Assembly (NCBI GenBank): GCA_016182485.1 | Contig: JACPGH010000005.1 | Location: 305 to 64,304, forward strand | Source: Candidatus Kaiserbacteria bacterium | Lineage (GTDB): Bacteria > Patescibacteriota > Minisyncoccia > Phycocordibacterales > Phycocordibacteraceae | DNA: 64,000 nucleotides | Direction of reading: 5' to 3' | Part shown: positions 4,548 through 63,961 of the stretch, one piece after another | Layout: each line of letters begins with the position of its first letter | How positions within the stretch are numbered: the first letter of the stretch is position 1 | Notes under the pieces: generated by a model | Told to the model about the DNA's origin: nothing | What the model saw: the letters and a program-made list of their open reading frames with translations, nothing else | Databases searched by the model: none | Position numbers and translations under genes: made by a program

Positions 4548-4949
4548 TCAAGGGCCCGCATGCCGGCTCACGATATCCTCGACTTTCCCAGTTATCTCCT
4601 CTATCAAGCTGTTTGCTTTGACCAGATAGCCGGCCGCGCCCAGATCAAGGCCGCGCTTTATTTCCTCTTTGCTGCCCAGATTTGAGAGAATGAGGATTGG
4701 GATAGATTTCGTCGATTCTCCTCTTTTCAGCTCGCCCAAAATATCGAAGCCGTTGGCCCCGGGCAAGACAATGTCAAGGAGCACGATATCCGGCTTCCAG
4801 GACTGCACCTTTTCTACGACCTGCCTCCCATCCGTAATAAGATCGACGTCAAACCCTTCCTCGCGCAAATGGTTCGTGAGTACACCCGACAGGAGAGAAT
4901 CATCTTCTACGAGCACTACTCTGCCTTTCTTGCCTTCTGCCGGTGCCAT
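4548..4949 (-). CDS. Single-domain response regulator (CheY-like receiver)
   Basis: VVLVEDD...DIVLLDIVLP...ILILSNLG...GAAGYLVK receiver signature; no output domain. Confidence 0.8.
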   Translation of the reverse strand: MAPAEGKKGRVVLVEDDSLLSGVLTNHLREEGFDVDLITDGRQVVEKVQSWKPDIVLLDIVLPGANGFDILGELKRGESTKSIPILILSNLGSKEEIKRGLDLGAAGYLVKANSLIEEITGKVEDIVSRHAGP

Positions 4950-5002
4950 TCTTTCATTATACGAGCGCGGGGGAGGCTTGCGGGAGCTATCAACAGCACT
5001 GT

Positions 5003-5683
5003 TCAGGCGCGGGAGCTGGCATCCGAAAGGATCAGGCCGTCGTCCATCTTCACGATCCGGCCGGTAACGCGGGCGTATTCCTCCTCGTGAGTGACCATGA
5101 TGATCGTCTGCCCGACGGCGTGGAGCTCCTTGAATATCCCGATGACGCGAGCGGAGGACTCGCGGTCGAGATTGGCGGTTGGCTCGTCGGCAAAAAGCAC
5201 TTTCGGATCGTGCGCGATCGCCCGGGCGATCGAGACGCGCTGCTGCTCGCCGCCCGAGAGCTGGGAAGGCAGGTTCAGAAGCCGGGGGAGCAGTCCGACG
5301 CGCGAGAGCGCCGCCGTGGCCTTCGAGCGGGCGGCTTCCTTCGCGTATCCCTGCATAAGGAGCGGCAGCATGACGTTCTCGAGCGCGGAGAGTTCCGGCA
5401 AGAGCGCGTAGTCCTGAAAAACGTAGCCGAAAGAAAGCAGACGTATCTTGATCTCCTCGTTCTGGCTCATGAGACGGGTCGAACGCCCTTCGACGAACAC
5501 GTCCCCTCCCGAGGGCTCGTCGAGAAGCGACAGCTGATAAAGCAGCGTGCTCTTCCCCGCCCCCGAGCGGCCCATGATAGCGACGAATTCTCCCTGCGCG
5601 ACCTTAATATCTATGCCTTTAAGCACCCGCGTTTCGCGCTCGCCGTCTTTAAAACTCTTCACCAGCTGTTTGGCTTCAATCAT
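5003..5683 (-). CDS. ABC transporter ATP-binding protein (MacB/LolD-like)
   Basis: Walker [10 protein letters not shown], signature [14 protein letters not shown], Walker B LFADEPT. Confidence 0.9.
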
Positions 5684-5778
5684 GGTTCGACTACGCTCAC
5701 CATAAATGTTCGACTTTGCTCACCATAATGGTTCGACTACGCTCACCATAAAATGTTCGACTTTGCTCACCATAAATA
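5684..5778 (-). repeat. Four tandem ~23-bp repeats (minus: ATGGTGAGCRWAGTCGAACMWTT) filling the entire permease-ATPase intergenic gap
   Basis: Units catggttcgactacgctcac / cataaatgttcgactttgctcac alternate A-B-A-B; each carries ATG and a GGTGAG SD-like core; encode mini-ORFs [33 protein letters not shown] whose last TGA overlaps the ATPase ATG. Confidence 0.85.
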
Positions 5779-7038
5779 TCAATTGCGTCCGAGAATGGAA
5801 TCGAGCGTATTCTTGCGCACGATCATCCGCGCCGGAAGATAGCCGGCGATAATGGTCGTGAGTGTGAGGATCGCGATGCGTATGAGTGTATCTGGGACCG
5901 GCGCGACGAGGATGGCGTTGCTGATCGGCAGGCTGATCGGATGCGCGGAAATATACGGAACGAGAAATCCGTACAGTATGGCGAATCCGATACCGCTGCC
6001 GATAATCGCGTAAAAAAGGGATTGGCAGACATAGGAAAACTCGATCGCCTCGCCCGATATGCCGATGCCCTTCAAGATGCCTATGAATTTCCGCCGCGTG
6101 AGCGCGTTGATGAATATGACGATGAAGATAGTTATCGCGGCGACGGCGAGGCCCACCGAGCCGATCGCGTTGCCGATGGCGGCGAACGTATTCGTGATCT
6201 CCGCGATCCCGTTCGGAATCGCGTCGAGGAAGGACTGCACCTTGGCGTCTTCGCCGAGGCCGCTTCGCAGGAGAAGGTCCCGGAAGGCTTCCGCGTCGGC
6301 TCCCGGCGCGAGCTTGATGGCGATCTCGTCCACGTTCTGATCGGTCCGCCCGGCGAGCTGGGCGAGCTCGCGCTCTAGCATAAAGACCTTGAGCGCGAGC
6401 GGCGAATTCGCCGTAGTGACGAGAATGCCCTTCACCGTAACGATTCGAGTGGACCCGTTTACCGTAAGCCGTATCTTCGTGCCCGGATAGACATTTTTCA
6501 GGGGCGTTAGCGTGGGCATTTCCCCGAAAGAATAGCGGTCCACGAACTGCGAGCCGAGTAGGACGGCATCATAATCGCCGGGCGAGAGATATTCGCCCTC
6601 GGCGACATACTTCGCCAAACCGGAGAATTTATTCTCGGCGACCGGCTCTATGCCGGTGATAGAAGCCGAGGTCGAGTTGGGCTTCTCGGAAAAATCCGTG
6701 CGGTTCTGATAATTCGCTTCGAGCGTGCCGCCCGCGATAGTCCGGTACGCGATCTTCTCCGCCTCCGGCAGGCTGCGGACTAGGGAAAGGATCTCCTGGC
6801 TGTTACCGATGTAATCTTCCGTGGCCAGCGCGGAGAGATACACGTCCCCGGTTTCGAGCAGCCGGAACTGGTCCGTGATGCCCTGCACAATGCCTACCAA
6901 GATGCCCGTCACGATGACGAGATTTAGGAAGGTGAGCAGCATCACGAAGACGATGAGCGAGGTCGTCCAAAGGCTCGCGCGGCGTATCTGCCGCACGGCG
7001 AGAAACCAGCCGACGCGGATATTGGTAAGCGAGAACAT
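5779..7038 (-). CDS. ABC transporter permease, FtsX/MacB-like
   Basis: N-terminal TM, large periplasmic domain, C-terminal 3-TM FtsX-like bundle; operon with ATPase and HlyD adaptor. Confidence 0.85.
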   Translation of the reverse strand: MFSLTNIRVGWFLAVRQIRRASLWTTSLIVFVMLLTFLNLVIVTGILVGIVQGITDQFRLLETGDVYLSALATEDYIGNSQEILSLVRSLPEAEKIAYRTIAGGTLEANYQNRTDFSEKPNSTSASITGIEPVAENKFSGLAKYVAEGEYLSPGDYDAVLLGSQFVDRYSFGEMPTLTPLKNVYPGTKIRLTVNGSTRIVTVKGILVTTANSPLALKVFMLERELAQLAGRTDQNVDEIAIKLAPGADAEAFRDLLLRSGLGEDAKVQSFLDAIPNGIAEITNTFAAIGNAIGSVGLAVAAITIFIVIFINALTRRKFIGILKGIGISGEAIEFSYVCQSLFYAIIGSGIGFAILYGFLVPYISAHPISLPISNAILVAPVPDTLIRIAILTLTTIIAGYLPARMIVRKNTLDSILGRN

Positions 7039-7040
7039 AC

Positions 7041-8555
7041 TTACGGCAGTAGCGGCGAGAGCCGAATCACGTCGCCCTCCTCGAGCCCCGACACGATCTC
7101 TATCTGTCCGGTCGAGGGAATCCTGCCGGTTGTCACCGGGCGGTTCTCGGTACGCCCGTCTACGACAACTGTCACAAATTTGCCAAGAACACCTTCTCCC
7201 ACGGCTCCGATCGGTATGACGATCGCGCCCGAGAGCGTACCGGTCGTGATAACGACATCCGCCGTCATACCGCTCCGGATGCGTGAGTCTCTAGATAAAA
7301 AAGCGAGGGTCGTTTTATACGTGGGAACGCCGTCTTTAACGGTTTCTGCCGGATCGACCGCGATTACTTTCGCAGGGAAAGCGGCTCCGGAACCGTATGC
7401 GTCTAACGTCGTCGTCGCCGTATTGCCGACCGTGACCGTTCCGATGGCGACTTCGGGAACGAACGTCTCTATCTGAAAGAGCCCGTCGCTCTGCATGGAG
7501 ATCAGGGCGTCCGACGGCGATACTATGGAGCCGGCTTTAGCGTCCATACGCGTCACTATGCCGTCAAAAGGCGCTACGACGCGCGTCTCCGCGAGCGCGG
7601 CCGCCGCGCTCGCCACCTCCGCCTGCGCCGCGGCCACCGCCGCTTCTTCGGCGGCGACCGCTTCGAGCGTCGGACCCGCTTGCTTGAGCGCGAGCGTTTT
7701 TTCCGCCGAGTCGAGAGTAGCGCTGTCGGCAGTTATGGCAGCGGCGGCCGCGTTTATGCTCGTACGGCCGGCGGCGATATCAGTACCGTACGATGTGAGC
7801 GACGCCGCCGTAACAGTGCCGCTCGGCAATCCCTGATTTACCGCCGCGCTTGCATCATTTAAGAGCGCCAGCACCCGCGCAAGGTAGGCTTGCGCCTGTT
7901 TGGCCGAGGCGGCGGCGTTGTCATTCGTCAATCGCGCGACCATGAGCGCCCAAGCCGCGAGCGTCTCCTCGACTGCGACACGGTCGCGCTCGAGCGCCGA
8001 CTTGAGAGTCATATTAGAAACAAGGAAGGTAATCCTCGGATCTTTTGACCGAGAGTCGGAAAAGAACTGATCCACCTTCGTGCGCACAGTATCGTCGGCA
8101 GTCGTATAAGCGCTTCGGATGGAGTCGAGAAGCCCGGCGCGCGCGTTCGTGACCGCGATAGCGGCCACCGCGACTTCTTCAGATCGCGTCCCGGCTTTAA
8201 GCGAAGCCAGATCCGCCTGCGCCTTCTTGAGCGCCGCCTGTTTCTGCGAAAGAGCCGCGGCCAGATCGCCGTTCTCGATCTGAGCAAGCATGGTGCCCGC
8301 ACGCACTCTTTGGCCGACTGCGGCGTAGGTACCGGAAATTCGACCGTTCGCCGCGAATCCCAGGCGGACGTCCTGCTTGGCGGTTACGGTCCCTGACACG
8401 TTTACCCGCTCGACGACGTTTGCGCGGCGTACGGAGAGCGTGGCTCCCGAGGCGCCTCCCCTGCCGAAAAAGAACCAGGCAAGGAAAAGGACTACCGCCA
8501 GAGCGAGCGCGTAGCGCCATCCTCGAGCTGCCAATCGACGGAGGGAGAGAATCAT
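7041..8555 (-). CDS. HlyD/MacA-family periplasmic adaptor (membrane fusion protein) with unusually long Ala-rich coiled-coil hairpin
   Basis: N-terminal TM anchor, biotinyl-lipoyl-like and beta-barrel segments, ~250-aa AQ-rich helical insertion. Confidence 0.8.
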   Translation of the reverse strand: MILSLRRLAARGWRYALALAVVLFLAWFFFGRGGASGATLSVRRANVVERVNVSGTVTAKQDVRLGFAANGRISGTYAAVGQRVRAGTMLAQIENGDLAAALSQKQAALKKAQADLASLKAGTRSEEVAVAAIAVTNARAGLLDSIRSAYTTADDTVRTKVDQFFSDSRSKDPRITFLVSNMTLKSALERDRVAVEETLAAWALMVARLTNDNAAASAKQAQAYLARVLALLNDASAAVNQGLPSGTVTAASLTSYGTDIAAGRTSINAAAAAITADSATLDSAEKTLALKQAGPTLEAVAAEEAAVAAAQAEVASAAAALAETRVVAPFDGIVTRMDAKAGSIVSPSDALISMQSDGLFQIETFVPEVAIGTVTVGNTATTTLDAYGSGAAFPAKVIAVDPAETVKDGVPTYKTTLAFLSRDSRIRSGMTADVVITTGTLSGAIVIPIGAVGEGVLGKFVTVVVDGRTENRPVTTGRIPSTGQIEIVSGLEEGDVIRLSPLLP

Positions 8556-8632: not shown

Positions 8633-11016
<2,384 letters not shown>

Positions 11017-11042
11017 CTAGTTGCTGGAAGCTGGTAAATTCT

Positions 11043-28743: not shown

Positions 28744-28821
28744 TTTATAGCAAGATAGGCGTTAGGCGCTAGGCTTTAGCAATAACGTATTCGCTAGAGC
28801 CTAATGCCTAGTGCCTGAATT

Positions 28822-32567: not shown

Positions 32568-32600
32568 TTTTCTATATTTAAATGTTAAAAATATTTGAAT

Positions 32601-32951
32601 TTAAAATATAAGCCCGCCTGCGCGCGCCGCCTCCGCAAGCATCTGCACATGCCCGCCATAGCGGTAGCCGCCGCGATCGAAGACGACCGACTTCACGCCG
32701 AGGTCCTTGGCCGCTTTCGCTATCGCCTCGCCTACCGCCTTCGCCTGCACGGATTGAGAGCCTTTGAACGTACGCCCGTGCGCCGAAGCGACAGTCCTCC
32801 GCCTCGCGTCATCGATGAGTTGCGCGGAAACGAACTGATTCGACTTGTATACGGAAAGCCGCGGACGCTCGCTCGTCCCGACAATTTTTGCGCGTATGCG
32901 CTTGTGGCGGCGCTTCCTGAGTTCGTTCTTGGATTTGAATTTGTGTTGCAT
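32601..32951 (-). CDS. rplR: 50S ribosomal protein L18
   Basis: L18 signature RPRLSVYKSNQFVSAQLIDD. Confidence 0.9.
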   Translation of the reverse strand: MQHKFKSKNELRKRRHKRIRAKIVGTSERPRLSVYKSNQFVSAQLIDDARRRTVASAHGRTFKGSQSVQAKAVGEAIAKAAKDLGVKSVVFDRGGYRYGGHVQMLAEAARAGGLIF

Positions 32952-32984
32952 GTTTTTTGCTAGAGCCTAGCGCCTAAAGCCTAG

Positions 32985-34301: not shown

Positions 34302-34853
34302 TCAGCGTTTGGCGACCGAGTCAACGACGAGAGGAAGGCCAAGATGGCGCAGGAACGCCTCGGCCTCGGCCTTTGACGAGGCAGTCGTTACGATCGTGAT
34401 AGCGAGACCGAACACGTCCTTCAGGTCCTCGTCGGAGGTCTCCGGGAAGATCGTATTCTCTTTGATGCCGACGGTGACATTCCCCATATCATCAATAGCT
34501 TTGGCTGAAAGGCCTCGGAAGTCGCGAGTGCGCGGCAGGGCGATGTGGATGAGCTTGTCGAGGAAATCGTACATGCGGGCGCCGCGCAGAGTCACCTGAA
34601 GGCCAACTACGTCTCCCTCGCGCACCTTGAAGGAAGCGATCGAAAGGCGCGCCGTGCGTGCGGAAGGCTTCTGCCCCGTGATGCGAGCCAGACGATCCTC
34701 GATCAATTCGAGTTGTTTTTTGTCCCGCTTCTTGCCGACGCCGGAGGACACGATGACCTTGGTCACGCGCGGGCCCTGCATAGGACTCGTGTACCCGAAG
34801 GCCTCGCGGAGCGCGAGATAAGCGGCCTGCTGTTTTTGCTTGGTGAGAGACAT
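34302..34853 (-). CDS. rplE: 50S ribosomal protein L5
   Basis: L5 signature. Confidence 0.95.
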
Positions 34854-34885
34854 AATTAAATATTTAAATATTTAAATATTTAAAG
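34854..34885. repeat. (TTAAATAT)x3-4 tandem octamer repeat in rplX-rplE spacer
   Basis: attaaatatttaaatatttaaatatttaaagc directly upstream of rplE ATG. Confidence 0.7.
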
Positions 34886-35551: not shown

Positions 35552-35568
35552 AGGTAGATAAGTAGGCT

Positions 35569-35847
35569 CTAGGCTCTAGGCTCTAGGCTGATACGGAAAT
35601 GCTTGCGTTTTGAAATGGGTCGCGTAGCCACAATGGTGACTTTATCGCCTACCTGCGCGGCATTGCCTGGATTGTGGGCGAGAAATTTTTTCGAACGAAC
35701 AAGGTATTTCTTGTATTTCGGGTGCTTCTCGAAGCGGTCGACCCGCACGGTGGCCGTCTCCTGCATGGCCGTCTTGACGACGGTTCCGACGAACGATTGA
35801 GGTCGACCCTGAACGGAGCGAGCGAGGCGAGTGAGTTTTTGTTCCAT
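35569..35847 (-). CDS. rpsQ: 30S ribosomal protein S17
   Basis: OB-fold S17 signature; 3' end contains (GGCTCTA)x3 tandem. Confidence 0.9.
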   Translation of the reverse strand: MEQKLTRLARSVQGRPQSFVGTVVKTAMQETATVRVDRFEKHPKYKKYLVRSKKFLAHNPGNAAQVGDKVTIVATRPISKRKHFRISLEPRA

Positions 35848-37230: not shown

Positions 37231-37239
37231 AGCTAGAGC

Positions 37240-37569
37240 CTAGTGCCTAGAGCCTAGTTCCACGGTAATGCGGCTCTTGCGCCGGCGGATGAGCGCGGCG
37301 CTGCCGCGCGCGCGAGGCATGTACTTCTTGAGCATTCCGGCGCTGCCCACCGTGACGCTCTTCACGACGAGCGTCTCCGCATCTACCCCCTGTGCCTTAG
37401 CGTTCGCCGCGGCGCTCTCTATAAGCTTTTTCATGGGTTCGGCCGCGCGCTTGGGAAGGAACGCGAGCGAAGCAAGCGCATGAGGCACCTTCTTTCCCTT
37501 CACTAGGTCGGCGACGAGCCGGACCTTGCGGGGCGACTGGTTATAGCTTTTGAGCGAGGCAGTAGCCAT
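37240..37569 (-). CDS. rplV: 50S ribosomal protein L22
   Basis: L22 signature. Confidence 0.9.
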   Translation of the reverse strand: MATASLKSYNQSPRKVRLVADLVKGKKVPHALASLAFLPKRAAEPMKKLIESAAANAKAQGVDAETLVVKSVTVGSAGMLKKYMPRARGSAALIRRRKSRITVELGSRH

Positions 37570-43611: not shown

Positions 43612-43657
43612 GTGGCTGGTTTGCTAGTAACTAGTTTCTAGTCACTAGTTAACTAGT
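43612..43657. repeat. ACTAGT-rich spacer (5x CTAGT within 46 nt) between tuf stop and rpsJ start
   Basis: tggctggtttgctagtaactagtttctagtcactagttaactagtc; TAG in all three frames. Confidence 0.7.
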
Positions 43658-44857
<1,200 letters not shown>

Positions 44858-45126
44858 AATCGTTACGTAATTCTCAATTTACAATTTTCAATTTCCAATG
44901 AGTTGCCATCGGATTTATTTGAAAATTGCAAAATTAAAAATTGAAAATTATTAATAAATCCGACTCGGGTCGGAAAACACTCCCGGCCCGTCAGCAGAAC
45001 CAGCGACAAGCCAAAGAGCGACGCCACAATGCGTTATCTAGCAATGTAACCGACCCTTCACAAAAACGCAAGGTTCTGCTAGGGTAGCCATGGGTAAAAT
45101 CTTCTATAACCAGTCAGGAGGACTGC

Positions 45127-50714: not shown

Positions 50715-50742
50715 TGTATTTCTAAAGCCTAGTGCCTAGAGC

Positions 50743-51150
50743 CTATTTCGGCCTCTTAGCGCCGTACCGAGAGCGTGCCGTGCGGCGCTTCTCGACGCCG
50801 GACGCATCAAGCTTGCCGCGCACTATCGTATACTGGACGCCGATATCCTTCACGCGGCCGCCGCGCAGCATTACAACAGAGTGCTCCTGTAGATTGTGGC
50901 CCATGCCAGGAATATAGGCGGTTACCTCCATCCCGTTCGTCAGCCGCACGCGCGCGATCTTGCGGATAGCGGAGTTCGGCTTGCGCGGCGTCTTCGTCGT
51001 CACCTTCGTAGCTACGCCACGTTTGAAGGGAGAAGGATAATAAGTCGGCCGGTTCTCGAGGGAGTTGAATCCGCGGGCAAGCGCAGGCACGCTCGTCTTG
51101 AACGGCCTCTGCTTGCGCCCTTTTTTAGTAAGCTGATTGATAGTGGACAT
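50743..51150 (-). CDS. rpsL: 30S ribosomal protein S12
   Basis: S12 signature incl. PNSA(I/L)RK. Confidence 0.97.
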
Positions 51151-57083: not shown

Positions 57084-58019
57084 TTAGCGAAATTCTGCCC
57101 GGCCGGCCGAGAGCCACGTCTCAAGCGGCAGGTCCTCTGCTCGGGCGCTCTCGGGAATGCCGGCGGCCTGAAGGGCTTTCGCCGAAATGACGGAGGCGCG
57201 GATGAGATTATTCCTCACTAATTTGCGCTTATGCGCGAAGCCGGCGTGCAGGAGCTCGAAAAAATGCTTTTCTTCTTTGGCATTTTTGAAATTTCTGCGC
57301 GAGATATCCCGAATGGCAAGGACGGCGGAATCCACTTTCGGGGCGGGCCGGAATGCGCCGCGCGGGACGGTAAATTCGTATCGCGGCGTGCCATAGGCTT
57401 TGACCGAAAGCGAGAGGAGGCTTTCCTTGCCCTTCGAAGCTTTAGCGGAGTAGGGTTTGCCCGAGCGCGCAACCCGTTCAGCCACTTCTTTCTGTACGAG
57501 AAGCATCATAGACCTCGGCTGATTGCGCGCTTCGAGAAACATGCGGATGATCTCGCCCGTGAGATAGTAAGGAATGTTCGCTATCACATGATAACCATCT
57601 TTTACGCTATAGCGTGAATTAAGGTTATGCCCGACCCAATCGCGGATGTCGGCGTGCACGAGCTCGAGGCGGCCGCCCGCGATTTCTTTTGCAAAAGTTT
57701 CCTTCAATTCTGCAACGAGCGCCGCGTCCATTTCGACAGCGATTACTTTTTTGGCTCGCGCGAGAAGCGCTTTAGTCAAGATGCCCCGGCCGGGCCCGAT
57801 TTCGAGCACGGTAGCATCTTTCGGCAGCTCGGCGGATTTTACGATCCGCTCCGCGATGCGCGGATGCATGAGAAAATGCTGGCCGAGCGATTTCTTGGGG
57901 CGTGAAGCCCGCAGGTTGAAAAGAGAGTTGAATTGGCCTAGCGGCCGGAGCGCTCTCTTTTCGGCCTGTGGGCGAACGCCCCTACGCCTCAATAGTTTCC
58001 TCGGCATCCGATTCATCAT
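57084..58019 (-). CDS. rsmA: 16S rRNA (adenine1518/1519-N6)-dimethyltransferase RsmA/KsgA with ~45-aa basic N-terminal extension
   Basis: KKSLGQHFLM, VLEIGPGRGILT SAM motif. Confidence 0.85.
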   Translation of the reverse strand: MMNRMPRKLLRRRGVRPQAEKRALRPLGQFNSLFNLRASRPKKSLGQHFLMHPRIAERIVKSAELPKDATVLEIGPGRGILTKALLARAKKVIAVEMDAALVAELKETFAKEIAGGRLELVHADIRDWVGHNLNSRYSVKDGYHVIANIPYYLTGEIIRMFLEARNQPRSMMLLVQKEVAERVARSGKPYSAKASKGKESLLSLSVKAYGTPRYEFTVPRGAFRPAPKVDSAVLAIRDISRRNFKNAKEEKHFFELLHAGFAHKRKLVRNNLIRASVISAKALQAAGIPESARAEDLPLETWLSAGRAEFR

Positions 58020-60033
58020 AGAGCATTGCGCCGCCCGTGCGCGGGATATCGGCGAGAAAAGAGGACGGTTCGGTAATGGAATCGCTGCCGTAGATCTTGC
58101 GGACGCGCGCGAGCGTGAGTATAAGCCGTTCTTTCGCCCGGGTCATCGCGACGTAAAATAGCCGCCGCTCCTCTTCCTCGTCGCGCTCTCGTCCCCCCGC
58201 CTGCGAATCTCCGCCGATATTTTCATGCGGGAAAAGCCCTTCTTCCATGCCGCTTACGAATACCGTCTCGAACTCAAGCCCCTTGGCGGCGTGCACGGTC
58301 ATCATCGTGACTCCGCGCTTCTCTCCTCCTTGCCCCGAGCGTGTTGAGGGGTGGTCCATCTCGTCCTGATCGCTCGCGAGCGCCGCCTCGGCGAGAAAGG
58401 CCGCTATCCCCTCTTTCCCAGGAGTACCGTCATGACGCGCGGCTACTGAAGCGAGCTCCTCGATATTCTCGAACCGCTCGCGATCCTCCTCGCTTCCTTC
58501 GTCGAGCAAAGTTTTGCGCATGCCGCTCTTCTCTACTACGAGCTTGGCAAACTCCGAGGGAGCGAGCGTTTCGGCGGCGCGCGAAAGCTCTGCGATAAGC
58601 CGTTCGAACTGCTCTATCTTGGCCAGCTCGCCCGCGCGCAGATCGCCCCTCTTACCGGCAAGCAGTTTCCCCAAGGTCACCTTGCCGATGCCGCGCGGCG
58701 GCGACGCCGCCGCGCGCATCTTATCGGCTTCGCGCGAAGGATCGAGCGCAAGGCGCATCCAAGCGAGCGCGTCTTTCACCTCCTTGCGCGCGAAGAAGCG
58801 CGTCCCAAGGAGCTTGTACGGCACCCCGGCGCGCAAAAGTCCCTCCTCGAGCGCCCGCGACTGGAAATTGGTTCTGAAAAGTATCGCGATATCTTCCGGT
58901 TTCCGGCCTTCGAGCATCAAGCCTCTTATCCGTCCAGCTATCCAGAGTGCCTCGTCCTCCGCGTTTATGGCGCAGTGCAAGAGGATGGGCGCGCCGGCGG
59001 AGTTCTCCGAGGTGGACTTTTTTTCTTTGCGGTTCTTGTTCTGCGCTATAACGGCATTCGCGGCCTCGACCAGGTTCTTCGTCGCGCGATAATTGCGCTC
59101 CAGAACGATGGTCTGCGCGCCGGGATAGCGCTTTTCGAAATTGAGTATGTTCTCCATCTTCGCTCCTCGCCATCCGTATATTGCCTGATCGCCATCGCCG
59201 ACCACAAACAGATTCCTATGCTTTTCTGCAAGCAAGCCGGCCAGTCGTTCCTGCAAATCGTTCGTGTCCTGATATTCGTCTATATGGATATAACGCCAGC
59301 GGTCCTGCGCAAGCGCGCGAATATCTTCGTATTGCTCGAGCAGTCGGACGGGCAGCGCGATAAGATCGTCGAAATCGAGCGCTTTCTCGGCCGAAAGTGT
59401 CTTTTCATACCGCTGCCAAACCTCCGCTACGATCCGGTTGCCGAAGCTCGACCGGCTATGCTTCTCATAAAAGTCCGCCGCGCGCAGTCCTTCTCCCTTA
59501 CTTCGGGAGATGCGGGAGAGAACGGCTCTCGGCGACAGCTCTTTCGCCCCCACATCAAGCGCCTTAAGCGCCGCCGCGACCGCCTTTTCCGAATCGTCGC
59601 GGTCATAAACGCTGAAATAGCGCGGGATGCCGATCCGCGAGCCATAAGTTTCAAGCAGGTAACGTCCGAGGCCGTGGAATGTGCCGATGAAAGGCATCCC
59701 GGCAGGTGCTGTTAGTCGGCTCACGGTGGACGGCTCATACCCGAGCATCTTTTGAACCCGCTCTCTCATTTCTCTCGCGGCTTTGTTCGTGAACGTGATC
59801 GCGAGGATAGTCTGCCCCGGCACGCCTTCTCTTATCAAATGATAGATCCGGGTCGTAAGCACGCGCGTTTTCCCCGAGCCGGCGCCGGCCAGCACCGAAA
59901 CGGGGCCGTCTCCCGCCAAGACGGCGCGCTTTTGCGCTTCGTTCAATCCTTCGAGGTACTTCACGTTCCGACTATACCCCAAAAACCGCTTTCCCCAACG
60001 TCCCGGGGAGCCGGTTGACCGCACGGCCGGCAT
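57982..60033 (-). CDS. UvrD/PcrA-family ATP-dependent DNA helicase
   Basis: Motif I AGAGSGKT, later helicase motifs; overlaps rsmA start. Confidence 0.9.
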   Translation of the reverse strand: MPAVRSTGSPGRWGKRFLGYSRNVKYLEGLNEAQKRAVLAGDGPVSVLAGAGSGKTRVLTTRIYHLIREGVPGQTILAITFTNKAAREMRERVQKMLGYEPSTVSRLTAPAGMPFIGTFHGLGRYLLETYGSRIGIPRYFSVYDRDDSEKAVAAALKALDVGAKELSPRAVLSRISRSKGEGLRAADFYEKHSRSSFGNRIVAEVWQRYEKTLSAEKALDFDDLIALPVRLLEQYEDIRALAQDRWRYIHIDEYQDTNDLQERLAGLLAEKHRNLFVVGDGDQAIYGWRGAKMENILNFEKRYPGAQTIVLERNYRATKNLVEAANAVIAQNKNRKEKKSTSENSAGAPILLHCAINAEDEALWIAGRIRGLMLEGRKPEDIAILFRTNFQSRALEEGLLRAGVPYKLLGTRFFARKEVKDALAWMRLALDPSREADKMRAAASPPRGIGKVTLGKLLAGKRGDLRAGELAKIEQFERLIAELSRAAETLAPSEFAKLVVEKSGMRKTLLDEGSEEDRERFENIEELASVAARHDGTPGKEGIAAFLAEAALASDQDEMDHPSTRSGQGGEKRGVTMMTVHAAKGLEFETVFVSGMEEGLFPHENIGGDSQAGGRERDEEEERRLFYVAMTRAKERLILTLARVRKIYGSDSITEPSSFLADIPRTGGAMLYDESDAEETIEA

Positions 60034-60282: not shown

Positions 60283-61221
60283 GTGGATGCCGCGGCGAGC
60301 GCGCTCGTGCCGAGCGCCTCGACTCCGGCCTTGGTCGCCTCGACGAACCGCGACCCGAACGTGAGCATGCCGATCGCGCTCGCGACTTCAGGCAACACGG
60401 CGCTCCTCCCCTTCAGCGGCCCCGCCGGCACCTTGAGCGACGTGGCGAGCGCGCCTCCTCCCGATCGCATTTCGATATACGTAGTGCGTCCGGGCGACAC
60501 GCTTTCTGAGATCGCCGACATGTTCGGCGTGTCGGTCAATACCATCAAATGGGCGAATGACTTAAAGAGCGCGGGCGCCGTGCACCCGGGCGATACGCTT
60601 CTCATCCTGCCTATTTCCGGCGTTCAGCGCACCGTCGCGAAAGGAGATACTTTGAAATCCATCGCCAAAAAATACAATGCGGACGCGGAAGAAATCGCCC
60701 GATTCAACGGACTCGACCCCGCTCTCCCGCTTGCGATCGGCTCGACAGTCATAATACCTGGCGGCGAAGTAGCGCCTGCGCCTGCTCCCGTAAGGCCTGA
60801 AGGCAGTAACCTTGCCGCCAGAGGCGGCGGAGCAATACAATCCGGCTACTTTAGCAATCCCATCCCGGGCGCCGTAGTTACGCAGGGGCTGCACGGCTGG
60901 AACGGCGTAGACTTCGGCGCTCCGCGCGGCACGCCTATTAAGGCTGCCGCTAACGGAGTAGTCATCGTCTCTAAAAATGGCGGTTGGAACGGCGGATATG
61001 GCAAATATGTCGTTATCACTCATGAGAACGGGACGCAGACGCTCTATTCACACAACAGCAGCAACAGCGTCAGTGTGGGACAGCCGATCGCGCAGGGCCA
61101 AGTTATCGGCTACGTCGGTTCTACCGGCGAATCGACCGGCCCGCACCTCCACTACGAAGTCCGCGGCGCGGCCAATCCTTTCCGGAACTGCTCGATCGGC
61201 AGGGTCTGTTATGCCCAATAA
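60283..61221 (+). CDS. LysM(x2)-M23 family peptidoglycan metallopeptidase
   Basis: Two LysM repeats, M23 motifs HxxxD...HLHYE; GTG start in ORF track; in-frame upstream signal peptide lacks a canonical start (see findings). Confidence 0.8.
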   Translation: MDAAASALVPSASTPALVASTNRDPNVSMPIALATSGNTALLPFSGPAGTLSDVASAPPPDRISIYVVRPGDTLSEIADMFGVSVNTIKWANDLKSAGAVHPGDTLLILPISGVQRTVAKGDTLKSIAKKYNADAEEIARFNGLDPALPLAIGSTVIIPGGEVAPAPAPVRPEGSNLAARGGGAIQSGYFSNPIPGAVVTQGLHGWNGVDFGAPRGTPIKAAANGVVIVSKNGGWNGGYGKYVVITHENGTQTLYSHNSSNSVSVGQPIAQGQVIGYVGSTGESTGPHLHYEVRGAANPFRNCSIGRVCYAQ

Positions 61222-61284
61222 AACGTACGACTAGGACGAACGCCCTCTGATTTCCTTACAGGCCGCTCTTAAATCCGAGAAAAA

Positions 61285-61761
61285 CTAGTCTTTCTTTTCA
61301 ACGACCTGCCCGTTCGGAAGCCGCACGTAACCGGCTTTCATGATCATTTCTCCAACGATATCGCGCGGCGCTTCCCTTTTTAATTGCGAACCCGACATGC
61401 CGCCAATTTTTACCCTCTTAGCGAAGCTCGCGATGAGCCGGCTGCATTCCTCGGCAAGCGAATTTAAATGTTTAAACGTTTCAATATTTAAATATCCTAT
61501 GTCAGAAGCGACATATAACTGGGCGCGCACTTCCCCGGCGGACGCCTTAGCGATGTACAAATAATTCAAGAATTCGTACTTTGTGCCGCTCTCAAATCCT
61601 TCCGCTATGTTGGAGACGATCGATACCGATGCGCGCTGAATTTGGTCGCGGAAGCCGTTGTCTCTGCACGCTGTGAACGCTTTATAAACAAGTTTCGTGA
61701 GCTCACGCGCTTTCTTAAACATCATTAGGTCTTCAAATCTTTGTATGGTTGCCATCTTCAA
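61285..61761 (-). CDS. Four-helix-bundle protein (23S rRNA intervening-sequence protein family)
   Basis: Conserved IVSNIAEGF...Y..A.(S/G)S..E family signature; TTG or ATG (61755) start; AT-rich relative to surroundings. Confidence 0.75.
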   Translation of the reverse strand: MKMATIQRFEDLMMFKKARELTKLVYKAFTACRDNGFRDQIQRASVSIVSNIAEGFESGTKYEFLNYLYIAKASAGEVRAQLYVASDIGYLNIETFKHLNSLAEECSRLIASFAKRVKIGGMSGSQLKREAPRDIVGEMIMKAGYVRLPNGQVVEKKD

Positions 61762-61835
61762 ATGTTTAAATGTTTAAATGTTTAAATGTTTAAATGTTTA
61801 AATGTTTAAATGTTTAAATGTTTAAATGTTTAAAT
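61760..61835. repeat. (AAATGTTT)x9 perfect tandem octamer repeat abutting the start of the four-helix-bundle gene
   Basis: aaatgtttaaatgttt... 72 bp, then aaatttc. Confidence 0.9.
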
Positions 61836-61847
61836 TTCTGCGAATAA

Positions 61848-62096
61848 TCAGCCCGAAAGTAGATCCAAATCCACTTCCAAATCTTCAATTTTGGTTTTAA
61901 TTAGCTTTTTTGCGTCGTTAAGCGCCTTCTTGTATATATGTTCGCCCATAGATCGTAAAAAGAAATCGAGTATCTGCTCAGCGGCTACAAAGCCGATTAT
62001 TTCATCTCGTTCATTTTGAAAGAAACTGATTATCTCGTTCAAGTATGCGGTCTTGGCTTCTTTCGAAGCAAAATCGAATTTGTTTTTCTTTTCCAT
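61848..62096 (-). CDS. DUF2164-like small protein (82 aa)
   Basis: Lys/Glu-rich helical; AT-rich codon usage like neighbour gene. Confidence 0.5.
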   Translation of the reverse strand: MEKKNKFDFASKEAKTAYLNEIISFFQNERDEIIGFVAAEQILDFFLRSMGEHIYKKALNDAKKLIKTKIEDLEVDLDLLSG

Positions 62097-62125
62097 AATT
62101 TACATTTTTACATATTTAAATATTT

Positions 62126-63697
62126 CTACTCGAACCCGAACAGGCCGCGGGGACGATATTGGAGAGCCTCGTGTACGAATGCGGGCGTAACCGATTCGGC
62201 GCCGGCGAGGTCTGCAATAGTCCGCGCGACCCGCATAGTGCGATGGAAACTGCGCGGAGAGAGGTTCAGGCGGGAGGCCGCGGCCATAAGGGTCTCTTTC
62301 GCGGCGGCGCTCATGCCGCTTTTCTCATCGAGCTCGCGGGAGGAAAGCGCGGCATTCGTCGCTCCCCGCTTGCCTGTGCGCGCTTCCGCCTTGCGCCGGG
62401 CCCTGACAACCCTCTCCCGCACTGACTGGGACGATTCCCCGCGGGAAAGCTGCGCGAGCGTGTCATGCGGCACGAGCGGCACTTCTATCCAGAGGTCGAG
62501 GCGATCGACTATCGGGCGAGAGATCCGGCGCGCCTGCTTGGCCGCCGCGCGCATCGCTACGCGCATGTCCTCGGAGAGCGTGCTGGCCGGATTCATCGCC
62601 GCCACTATCATGCAATCGGCCGGAAAAGTGATCGTCGCGCGAGCGCGCGAAACGGTCACCACCCGGTCTTCGAGAGGCTGGCGCAGCGCTTCGAGCGTGC
62701 GCGAATCGAATTCGGGGAACTCATCCAGGAAAAGGACGCCTTTGTGGGCGAGAGTGACCTCGCCCGCCTTCGGGAAAGCGCCGCCGCCCACGATAGCGAC
62801 GTGCGAGATGGAGTGGTGCGGCGCCCGGAAAGGCGGCCAGTGCACCGCCCCGCCATCTGGAAGCAGGCCGGCGGTCGAGTGAATAGCGGTCACTTCGAGC
62901 ATTTCATCATCGGAGAGGGGCGGCAGTATGCCGGCGAGCGCGCGAGCAAGCATGGTCTTCCCTGTGCCGGGCGGCCCGTAAAAGACGATATTGTGCCGGC
63001 CCGCGGCCGCGATCTCGAGCGCGCGCTTCGCGCTCTCCTGCCCTTTTATATCCGCTAGATCGAGCGCGGGCGGCGGCGTCGGCACGTTTCTCGCCCGCAC
63101 GAGCCGCGGGAGCCTCTTCTCCTCCGTAAAATGCTTGATCAGATCAGCGAGCGATTCGGGCGCATGCACGGTTACCCCTTCTGCGAGCAGGGCCTCGGGA
63201 GCATTCCCCGGCGGAACGAAAATTGTTCTTACGCCCTGCCGCTTGGCGGCGAGCACCTGCGGCAGAACGCCCCGCACGGCGCGCAGCATTCCGTCGAGCG
63301 AAAGCTCCCCTATATAGAGCGCCTCTTCTGGCGGCAGGACGATATCGCTTGCGGCGGCGAGATACGCGAGCGCGAGCGCGAGATCGTAGTGCGAGCCTTC
63401 TTTCTTCAGATCGGCGGGCGAGAGCGAGAGCACGATGCGCTTATTCTGCTGTTTGGGCGGCTTGTACCCGGAGTGCCGGATCGCCGCGCTTACCCGATCA
63501 CGCGCCTCCTCGACCGCCTTGTCCGCAAGCCCGACAACGGAGAATGCGTGGAGTCCGCGAGTGAGATCGGCTTCGACTGAAACGAGTTCCGCGGAGGAAC
63601 CGACCGGCTGCGCCGCGAGAGTTTTAGCGTATCCGCGCTTCGGAAGAGTTGCCTCTACTGTGCCGGGGCGTTTTTTCGATTTCGGCGCGGGAGGCAT
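62126..63697 (-). CDS. comM: YifB/ComM-family Mg-chelatase-like AAA+ ATPase
   Basis: Lon-like N-domain, Walker A GPPGTGKT, ChlI region, C-terminal Mg_chelatase_C. Confidence 0.9.
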
Positions 63698-63703
63698 CGG
63701 CGG

Positions 63704-63961
63704 TCAGCGGTGCGCGATACAGGTCGTCGCGGCGGGATCCGCTTCGAGCCGCGCTTCCTCTATAGGCTTGCCGCATATTTCGCAGATGCCGTACGTCTCG
63801 GCCTCTATTCGGGAAAGAGCGGCAAGCACCATGTCATATCGGGCTTCCAGATCCGCGAGCACTGCCGCGTCATTCTCGCGGCTCGTGATTATATCGGCCT
63901 GATCGGCGGGATCCGACTCCGCCCCTCCCTCGGGCGGCACCGGCTCCCAGTCCCCGGGCAC
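63704..63961 (-). CDS. DksA/TraR-family C4 zinc-finger protein (start may lie beyond ORF-track M)
   Basis: CEICGKPI...(x17)...CIAHR 4-Cys pattern. Confidence 0.65.
   Translation of the reverse strand: MPGDWEPVPPEGGAESDPADQADIITSRENDAAVLADLEARYDMVLAALSRIEAETYGICEICGKPIEEARLEADPAATTCIAHR

Follow-up and report, generated by a model that had tools for sequence, protein, structure and literature searches.

Why should a perfect tandem octamer array stand directly before the start codon of a small gene of obscure role? The question is raised by a 64,000-nt stretch of DNA from a Candidatus Kaiserbacteria bacterium (GCA_016182485.1, contig JACPGH010000005.1; hereafter the window), in which an AT-rich islet of two genes, one for a four-helix-bundle (4HB) protein and the other for a DUF2164 protein, lies between comM and an M23 peptidase gene, with the array between its two genes. 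The interpretation towards which we lean, with modest confidence, is that the array is a slippage-expanded form of a conserved cis-acting expression signal belonging to the 4HB cassette, and that this cassette sits in a variable hotspot between comM and the M23 gene. An earlier description of the same sequence (the original prediction) had offered for the array a distinct promoter ‘dialect’ or UP element, or else a slippage-prone phase-variation tract, in an islet possibly acquired horizontally.

Tandem Repeats Finder (TRF) reads the array as AAATGTTT in 9.5 copies with 100% matches (76 bp, score 152), which makes it the only perfect and the top-scoring array of period 6-9 in the window, and its 16-mer pattern is matched there 19 times against 0.16 expected. 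On the coding (minus) strand the repeat is TTTAAACA x9.5, and the whole junction runs TGA-TTATTCGCAGAAA-(TTTAAACA)x9.5-TTTGAAG-ATG. All homologues of the 4HB protein begin with MAT(I/V)QRFEDL, so the true start is the ATG at 61755 and not the TTG of the open reading frame (ORF) list, and the array therefore ends 4 nt before the ATG; the perfect octamer array abutting the start codon, as originally described, is thus real. The last unit, degenerate as TTTGAAG(A) (61755-61762), stays in the 8-nt phase up to and including the ATG's A, the window reading TTTAAACA, then TTTGAAGA, then TG. No GGAGG-like Shine-Dalgarno motif is found upstream of the 4HB gene (TTTAAACATTTGAAG-ATG) or of the DUF2164 gene (AAAATGTAAATT-ATG); GGAGG does precede other Kaiserbacteria hotspot genes, and the lineage therefore uses Shine-Dalgarno sequences elsewhere.

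The octamer is a family-wide cis-element of 4HB genes, and not a private microsatellite of the window. Searching metagenomes with the 4HB protein added 80 loci (58-89% identity), all loci were pooled using a 4HB hidden Markov model built here, and the upstream count was made on 82 distinct genes. With the feature defined as two or more TTTAAA hexamers (up to one mismatch) at an exact spacing of 8 nt within the upstream 100 nt, it is present in 71 of the 82 (87%), with a mode of 3-4, as opposed to 6 of 1010 other ORFs of at least 120 amino acids (aa) in the Kaiserbacteria loci and the window. Nearly all of the 80 metagenomic homologues carry two to four TTTAAANN units directly before the ATG (e.g., CCAATTTAAATATTTAAACATTTAAATATATAAAA-ATG in locus L093), and a position matrix anchored at the ATG (n=80) places TTT at -7 to -5 and AAA at -4 to -2, repeated at -15, -23 and -31, i.e., an 8-nt period from -31 to -2 in which the A of the ATG is the eighth position of the last unit. 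The normal element consists of 3-4 units of TTTAAANN, some 32 nt, that adjoin the ATG on its upstream side and keep phase with it. To this extent the promoter ‘dialect’ holds, as AT-rich octamers recurring just before start codons. Only 15 of the 80 metagenomic homologues adjoin comM; the remaining 65 have no ComM, M23 or UvrD match in the fetched flanks, and the genes upstream of them end diversely (judged by the look of their terminal sequences), in SecA-C-terminus-like Cys/His-rich tails, in a recurrent ‘LYNSR’ or in Pro/Thr/Ala-rich stretches.

Tract length varies between lineages from 0 to 10 units, and the window array is the longest among 84 distinct 4HB upstream arrays. Five or more units occur in five loci: the window (10, the maximum), L014 (8), L118 (7), and L126 and L153 (5 each). 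The long runs differ in their unit variants (TCTAAACT in L014, TTTAAACA in L118) and hence arose independently, which, as far as the repeats themselves can tell, indicates a slippage-prone tract, in agreement with what had been suspected. The tract is also weakly self-complementary, due to the palindromic TTTAAA (folding z -2.2 as RNA; -8.9 kcal/mol and z -2.8 as DNA, where a hairpin or cruciform is possible), and this self-complementarity would favor slippage. The closest precedent of the array are the strain-variable heptamers of the 23S rRNA intervening sequence (IVS) found in Coxiella burnetii, in which two to three copies of GACAGAT and a degenerate one stand directly before the S23p ATG (PMC4990558). 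Both cases have in common the PF05635/S23p family, a repeat abutting the ATG, a degenerate last copy, a poor or absent Shine-Dalgarno sequence and an element AT-richer than its host, and in Coxiella the copy number varies among strains. The unit, however, is 7 nt long there and 8 nt (TTTAAANN) here, and whilst the Coxiella gene is situated in a stem-loop of the rRNA, which RNase III cuts, and probably goes unexpressed, the gene described here is free-standing, intact and highly conserved, with a second copy of the repeat in its ORF. A survey of rRNA insertions in the Candidate Phyla Radiation also records 23S_rRNA_IVP ORFs.

That second copy consists of exactly four phased units at codons 88-98 in 72 of 84 homologues, in the family form TAT TTA AAT ATT GAA ACN TTT AAA YAT TTA AAT (in the window TAT TTA AAT ATT GAA ACG TTT AAA CAT TTA AAT, i.e., YLNIETFKHLN). 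Of the ten codons 88-97, all but T93 (0.73) have a third-position AT of 0.92-0.99, as compared with a mean of 0.55 for the gene and values of 0.35-0.77 for the same amino acids elsewhere in it. Leucine, for instance, is at 0.94 (L89) and 0.96 (L97) inside the element, as opposed to 0.35 (L10), 0.51 (L80) and 0.47 (L107) outside it; lysine is at 0.99 (K95) as opposed to 0.50 (K70), and tyrosine at 0.97 (Y88) as opposed to 0.56 (Y81). Judging from codon choice across the homologues, such bias is a constraint on the nucleic acid and not on the protein. A third octamer block follows the 4HB stop in 37 of 80 loci, with none at that place in the window. The related tracts that had been placed inside the 4HB gene, upstream of the DUF2164 gene and upstream of rplE are likewise genuine, at 61463-61493, 62098-62125 and 34852-34884, respectively, and one more lies upstream of rpsE (32574-32606). 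Frameshifting into the -1 frame at the in-frame U_UUA_AAU heptamers of the internal copy was considered and rejected, as that frame meets a TGA after two codons and the motif occurs between genes too.

How could this element act? The block would be the gene's self-contained expression signal, working without a Shine-Dalgarno sequence and belonging to a Patescibacterial subfamily of PF05635 4HB genes, and the 9.5-copy array would be a recent expansion, by replication slippage, of this conserved cis-element. The phased consensus at -12 to -7 is AAAYAT; among the 80 sequences, 54 have A at -11 and 50 have T at -7, which in sigma-70 recognition are the two most important bases of the -10 element. 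Their spacing is what one would expect of a -10 element if the mRNA were leaderless or nearly so, with the units further upstream supplying AT-rich -35/UP-like DNA. If, on the other hand, the gene is co-transcribed with its upstream neighbor, the tract could be an unstructured AU-rich spacer, with stops in all frames, after which ribosomes would start without a Shine-Dalgarno sequence. Expansion would add units 5′ of an unchanged proximal unit and, because the unit next to the ATG stays as it is, would tune expression rather than switch it. Arrays fill the divergent intergenic regions of L108 and L126, where TTTAAA-N17-TATAAT lies some 10 nt before the ATG; heptamer arrays after rpsO in relatives precede TATAAT-like boxes, and arrays in the window precede rpsJ and rplN, classical operon starts in other bacteria. 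In Deinococcus and Actinobacteria, the promoters of leaderless mRNAs place a -10 TANNNT some 6-7 nt ahead of the ATG, and translational enhancers that are AU-rich and S1-dependent are known as well. They resemble the element in having no Shine-Dalgarno sequence, AT-rich DNA up to the ATG, and the A at -11 and T at -7, but here information is periodic over four equal units instead of concentrated in one hexamer. A different conserved pre-start element is seen at the NYN-domain gene downstream of rpsO, which in nearly all relatives (L003-L082) has a conserved AT-rich leader, TTTTATTATTTCGTTTTCATAAGCATTTATTTTT-ATGGCAGTT, some 250-350 nt upstream of its start (e.g., L010 1943-1984), together with a CATAAG/TATAAG box that lies 5-6 nt ahead of the ATG region.

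Several observations weigh against an expression signal, or narrow what it could be. The position matrix distributes its information evenly over the four units, with no peak at -11/-7, unlike that of a typical sigma-70 promoter, and a scan of 61000-62400 for E. coli-type sigma-70 sites (TTGACA-N16-18-TATAAT, at least 9 of 12) gives none on the coding strand and a single one on the opposite strand, the consensus being that of E. coli. Array and ATG as a rule stand too close for a core promoter to fit between them, and the originally proposed ‘UP element’ in the strict sense is not supported. Of the 62 4HB genes compared in this respect, 56 follow another gene in the same direction, at a distance of no more than 60 nt in 40 cases, so that a promoter of their own is not required, and co-transcription with an AU-rich spacer carrying stops in all frames and no Shine-Dalgarno sequence is equally possible. 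The internal copy is left unexplained by a start-codon signal and hints at a trans-acting binder or a role at the DNA level; no conserved start codon follows it in the homologues compared, which speaks against an internal translation start. The ribosomal junctions that bear arrays here are 1-16 nt long and array-free in five relatives, and part of the ‘dialect’ may therefore be a lineage-specific mutational habit and not a selected signal. Finally, the copy number of 9.5 comes from one assembly: five Logan short-read contigs of the same strain, from four runs, all end or begin inside the array (two of them read in sequence), and such contigs break in the tract at k=31 regardless of copy number.

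Coordinates of the islet, its surroundings and the related arrays in the window
Feature	Position	Strand	Remarks
DksA/TraR-type gene	63704-63961	-	
comM/yifB (Mg-chelatase-like AAA+ ATPase)	62126-63697	-	Pfam Mg_chelatase, ChlI, Mg_chelatase_C; left hotspot boundary, conserved
AT-rich spacer AAATATTTAAATATGTAAAAATGTAAATT, 29 nt	62097-62125	-	comM stop to DUF2164 ATG; TRF
DUF2164 gene, 82 aa	61848-62096	-	PF09932, 65.4 bits vs cutoff 27; most AT-rich part of the islet
Octamer array	61760-61835	-	Between DUF2164 and 4HB genes; TRF
4HB gene, 156 aa	61285-61755	-	PF05635/TIGR02436 ‘23S rRNA intervening-sequence protein’, S23p/Avd-like
Internal four-unit octamer element	61462-61494	-	4HB codons 88-98
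63-nt gap	61222-61284		Between convergent 4HB and M23 stops
LysM/M23 peptidase gene	60283-61221	+	Pfam Peptidase_M23 and two LysM; right hotspot boundary, conserved
uvrD	57982-60033		Follows M23 gene
AT-rich element CTTTAAATATTTAAATATTTAAATATTTAATT	34854-34885	-	rplX stop to rplE ATG, ATG in phase; Pfam confirms L5
AT-rich block ATTCAAATATTTTTAACATTTAAATATAGAAAA	32568-32600	-	Between rplR and rpsE
CTAG-core heptamers	11003-11025, 28756-28816, 32960-32984, 35563-35589, 37233-37257, 43619-43657, 50722-50745		Before groEL, ndk, rplR, rplN, rpsC, rpsJ, rpsG

The islet itself is accessory DNA in a variable hotspot after comM. A ComM scan of species-representative genomes gave 80 loci, all of them Candidatus Kaiserbacteria/Paceibacterota (71-85% aa identity), in which tblastn with the window proteins finds the order DksA-ComM-(convergent M23)-UvrD conserved. 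In the 67 loci having both flanks, the interval between the stops of comM and M23 was measured. In 38 of these it is 5-199 bp with no gene between, and most gaps of about 50 bp or more among these short ones hold a GC-rich hairpin resembling a bidirectional terminator; in the other 29 it is 356-2160 bp, and the cargo differs unrelatedly from locus to locus (toxin-antitoxin-like pairs, Fic-like genes, lipoproteins, an enolase-like gene, 4HB and others). The 4HB gene is present at this site in 6 of the 67 loci (75-89% identical to that of the window), and DUF2164 in none of these syntenic relatives. A word-indexed search of 5.8 billion proteins with the DUF2164 protein found only itself, and 1.84 billion representatives yielded 320 relatives at E<=1e-3, the best of which is 57% identical. 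We therefore regard 4HB as an old, patchily retained resident of the site and DUF2164 as a lineage-specific newcomer to the hotspot, and the latter probably inserted into an ancestral array, leaving a degenerate block on the comM side; the order of the two insertions is one that we infer. The comM stop directly abuts this block (the first AT-rich spacer), which amounts to about 3.5 degenerate octamer units without a Shine-Dalgarno sequence, and in L021 and L100 comM is followed by near-identical ‘AAATGTAAA’ junction blocks. The gap between the convergent 4HB and M23 genes, on the other side, has no octamer block, terminator hairpin or clear comM 3′ remnant by sequence reading and terminator scan. 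Microsatellites flanking the islet on both sides, as originally described, are thus not what is found: the long array lies between the genes, the comM side is degenerate and the M23 side has none.

The AT-rich two-gene islet as such is confirmed by Pfam matches to both genes and by base composition, with a GC content of 0.32-0.48 over about 61250-62300 as opposed to 0.56-0.69 in the flanks. Compared with 51 host genes, DUF2164 has a GC of 0.373 (z -5.8) and a GC at third codon positions (GC3) of 0.434 (z -3.4), and 4HB a GC of 0.476 (z -2.9) and a GC3 of 0.567 (z -1.6), and yet their synonymous-codon likelihoods (z -0.7 and -0.6) are not clearly foreign. In relatives, the GC3 of 4HB follows that of comM yet stays below it. 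The argument for a horizontal origin of the islet consequently rests on synteny (sites empty in 38 of 67 relatives, DUF2164 in none) and low GC, and the part of it expected from codon usage does not stand. Divergences of ComM and 4HB are uncorrelated (rho -0.02), all pairs falling in a 0.83-0.88 band that is too narrow to separate vertical from horizontal history, and the flanks of empty and occupied relatives are 73-81% identical, too distant for exact insertion boundaries.

Some inserts carry a trace of how they may have arrived. In L014, L043 and L045, the far end of the insert is a second, diverged comM 3′ end, stop codon included, of 90, 65 and 49 bp, respectively, which is the expected mark of homology-anchored DNA joined illegitimately further on, or of site-specific integration. 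Beyond the islet of the window, the only comM 3′ remnant is a 9-mer match, and 4.3% of shuffles do as well (p ~0.04). Islands of the AbaR/Tn6022 type target comM in Acinetobacter, and some islands duplicate the 3′ end of their target gene. The likeness lies in comM marking a variable insertion site and in the duplicated comM 3′ ends of the three loci above; here, however, insertion takes place after comM and not within it, neither a transposase nor an integrase is found, the inserts measure 0.4-2.2 kb, and the window has no clear comM duplication. Further along the same neighborhood, UvrD of at least five relatives (L007, at about 7070-8170, and L020, L033, L057 and L060) contains about 365 additional aa, inserted in frame and bearing the hallmarks of an intein (GDGDQ/CLVAGT ... 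THNFIANGIVTHN/CIYGWRG), and the uvrD of the window is without such an insertion (VVGDGDQAIYGWRG).

As to the proteins, 4HB scores 104.4 bits with PF05635 (cutoff 33.8) and 96.2 with TIGR02436 (cutoff 24), its profile matches PDB 2GSC at 7e-11, and its homologues make up at least 7913 clusters of 90% identity at E<=1e-10. A PDB search with DUF2164 gave no meaningful match, and neither islet protein was matched by the PADLOC defence models. Three familiar homes of such genes were considered and rejected. The gene is not a 23S rRNA IVS, its neighbors being comM/DUF2164 and M23, and Rfam at a permissive threshold finds in 60900-62500 no rRNA or other family but a chance plant-miRNA match (E 1.3). 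It is not the Avd of a diversity-generating retroelement either: comM, DUF2164, M23 and UvrD surround it, the flanks have no reverse-transcriptase ORF, and TRF reports no long direct repeat near it that could be a template/variable pair. Nor is the islet an integron cassette array, as there is no integrase in the window flanks or at the site in the 80 loci, and the boundaries are direct 8-nt repeats before ORFs, not attC-like palindromes.

What else could the phased repeats be? In principle, they could be binding sites of a ring of the 4HB protein itself, on the leader of its mRNA or on its DNA, as well as at the internal site and before rplE and rpsE, regulating its own synthesis in the manner of TRAP, the ring-shaped protein that reads phased (G/U)AG repeats in RNA; expansion to 9.5 units would then alter occupancy. 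This would account for several things at once: the element travels with the 4HB gene across many contexts, a four-unit copy superfluous for a start-codon signal is maintained at synonymous positions of the ORF, 37 of the 80 loci have a third block after the stop, and information is even across units. The family, moreover, forms rings, since the PDB relatives 2GSC and 2RLD have five chains in each entry and the Xanthomonas S23p is a toroidal homopentamer, and the Coxiella S23p gene likewise has tandem repeats at its ATG (PMC4990558). The resemblance to TRAP, a ring-shaped homo-oligomer family facing four to five phased short repeats at a translation start, is however one of analogy only, and is relevant solely to this explanation. 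Four units mismatch five subunits, an 8-bp period would put successive sites on different faces of duplex DNA, and in low-GC Parcubacteria the motif precedes many unrelated genes too. Avd, of the same kin, binds nucleic acid in diversity-generating retroelements. Taken together, we find a ring binder unlikely, though worth keeping in sight, and would give no more credence to its corollary that four TTTAAANN units are the ring's recognition site, making gene plus operator either a self-controlling and perhaps self-mobilising selfish cassette, or a Patescibacteria-wide regulator whose targets include ribosomal-protein genes. Alternatively, the arrays could be recombination substrates, with cassettes entering and leaving them by a recombinase or by microhomology and blocks being left on both sides. 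Blocks do bound each cassette in L021, L084, L091, L094, L100 and the window, the ‘empty’ L010, L017, L055 and L056 retain one directly after the comM stop, L097 has a tandem triplication of block plus ATGGCAACT, and the array could form a hairpin or cruciform of the energy given above. Such exchange seems to us rather improbable all the same: no integrase or transposase lies in or beside the islet, the comM 3′ duplications point instead to homology-facilitated recombination, many hotspot cargos have no arrays and ordinary GGAGG sites, and the phase lock to the ATG would go unexplained.

The two remaining explanations concern the number of units. Short AT-rich tandem tracts are known to make promoters contingent, e.g., TAAA upstream of Neisseria nadA and TA between the -35 and -10 of Haemophilus hif, and gain or loss of 8-nt units could in the same way switch or grade 4HB expression in the population. 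Like these tracts, the array belongs to a 5′ control region, is a short tandem repeat rich in AT, and can be altered in length by slippage; being perfect over 76 bp, it is of the most slippage-prone kind, lineages differ widely (0 to 10 units), and Coxiella strains differ in heptamer copy number at the equivalent place. The nadA and hif tracts, however, shift a fixed spacing or a regulator site and their polymorphism within strains is documented, whilst here the repeat unit is itself the conserved element, phased to the ATG. The tract lies outside both ORFs, expansion leaves the ATG-proximal unit and the ATG unaltered, there is no fixed upstream promoter element whose spacing could shift, and thus at no position of the array does one unit toggle a reading frame or a -35/-10 spacing. 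Tracts are also identical within sets of near-identical metagenome loci (L086/L087, L089/L090, L098/L099, L147/L148 and L153-155). Phase variation, which the original prediction had suggested, is therefore hardly to be expected. The array could, on the other hand, be a neutral by-product of a genome that tolerates or generates junction repeats, due to weak mismatch repair for instance, with the 9.5-copy tract as a spacer of a length that may be an assembly estimate. The window does hold 28 arrays of period 6-9 per 100 kb, as opposed to 9.5 in the comM loci and 4.7 in the ribosomal loci of relatives, and ribosomal junctions with 25-33-nt arrays here are 1-16 nt in five relatives. Neutrality would nevertheless be applicable only to the extra units, given that the form of 3-4 units is conserved and phased in 87% of 82 diverse homologues and that the internal copy is under synonymous constraint; as an account of the whole it strikes us as very unlikely. 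The expanded expression signal remains, for these reasons, the interpretation we prefer.

Arrays in the window also precede groEL, ndk, rpsG, rpsC, rplR, rplE and rpsE. At the junctions L22>S3, S17>L14, L24>L5, L6>L18 and L18>S5, five relatives have 1-16 nt (54 in one case) and no array; the rplX-rplE junction is 1-8 nt and array-free in the four Kaiserbacteria relatives with rplX called, and the rplR-rpsE junction 6-16 nt (one of 54 nt) and array-free in relatives. In the window, the L24>L5, L6>L18 and L18>S5 gaps are 32-33 nt long and made of arrays, and arrays of 25-27 nt overlie the L22>S3 and S17>L14 junctions and extend into the 3′ end of the upstream ORF. One relative has a single unit at L22>S3, TAG-ATTTTAAAC-ATG, which suggests that the native context before a start codon can give rise to arrays; mutation pressure may thus account for the extra units as much as selection does.

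Other repeats deserve mention in their own right. Tandem heptamers with a CTAG core (CTAGGCT, CTAGGCA or ACTAGTT on the coding strand, three to five copies) stand directly before start codons in the window. Like TTTAAA, CTAG is a palindrome containing a stop codon on both strands, and with a period of 7 it puts stops in all six frames; the unit CTAGTGC/TAGGCAC is also seen in relatives L040, L044 and L052. At 5682-5777 a 47-bp unit is repeated twice at a gene boundary, as four 23-bp sub-units (GTTCGACTACGCTCACCATAAAT) each with a short inverted repeat (ATGGT...ACCAT). At 44869-44950, two AT-rich heptamer runs (AATTTTC/AATTTTG... and ...GAAATTG/AAAATTG) are inverted around a central CCGATGGCAACTCATTGG, together making up a palindrome, long but imperfect, just upstream of the start codon at 44857 of a gene (43658-44857) of EF-Tu size, which we assume to be EF-Tu. 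Among 4HB loci, L097 (about 950-1045) has a tandem triplication of block, ATGGCAACT and TTTACATTTT before the gene, and L098 (2797-2912) and L103 (2698-2810) have 48-bp tandem units of three TTTAAAYA octamers each, after Pro/Thr/Ala-rich ORFs resembling surface proteins. A perfect hexamer (CTCCGC) repeated 20.8 times in the Kaiserbacteria relative L081 (2484-2608) is longer than any tract in the window. In L174, a complete Kaiserbacteria chromosome (OY969413), two HTH_32/rve transposase copies with two unannotated ORFs between them (about 4600-7150 and 1-778) interrupt the S10-spc operon between rplE and rpsN, an unusual place for a tolerated insertion sequence. A scan of viral contigs for (TTTAAACA)3 gave six stretches on five contigs, four on giant-virus (GVMAG) contigs, which we take to be presumably unrelated microsatellites.

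Tandem repeats in a 5′ control region are an already-known kind of element. Their association with a huge gene family, together with an embedded copy at synonymous sites, appears to be unreported in the literature searched, in which we found no paper on Patescibacterial promoters or start signals, on the TTTAAANN element or on the function of DUF2164. PF05635 4HB genes are among the commonest small genes of obscure role in uncultured bacteria, and, outside diversity-generating retroelements, we know of nothing on their expression, binding partners or genomic scatter. If the recognition-site reading were true, it would provide the first molecular function for the very large free-standing PF05635/S23p family; if, on the contrary, the extra copies are slippage noise only, the tracts still break short-read assemblies and mark 4HB cassettes. 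In conclusion, the end of comM emerges as a recombination hotspot of the Kaiserbacteria lineage, the analysis gives a first look at Shine-Dalgarno-less start signals in these bacteria, and the ATG-phased element of 8-nt period, with up to three blocks per gene and one of them at synonymous sites, offers a cheap-to-test handle on this family.

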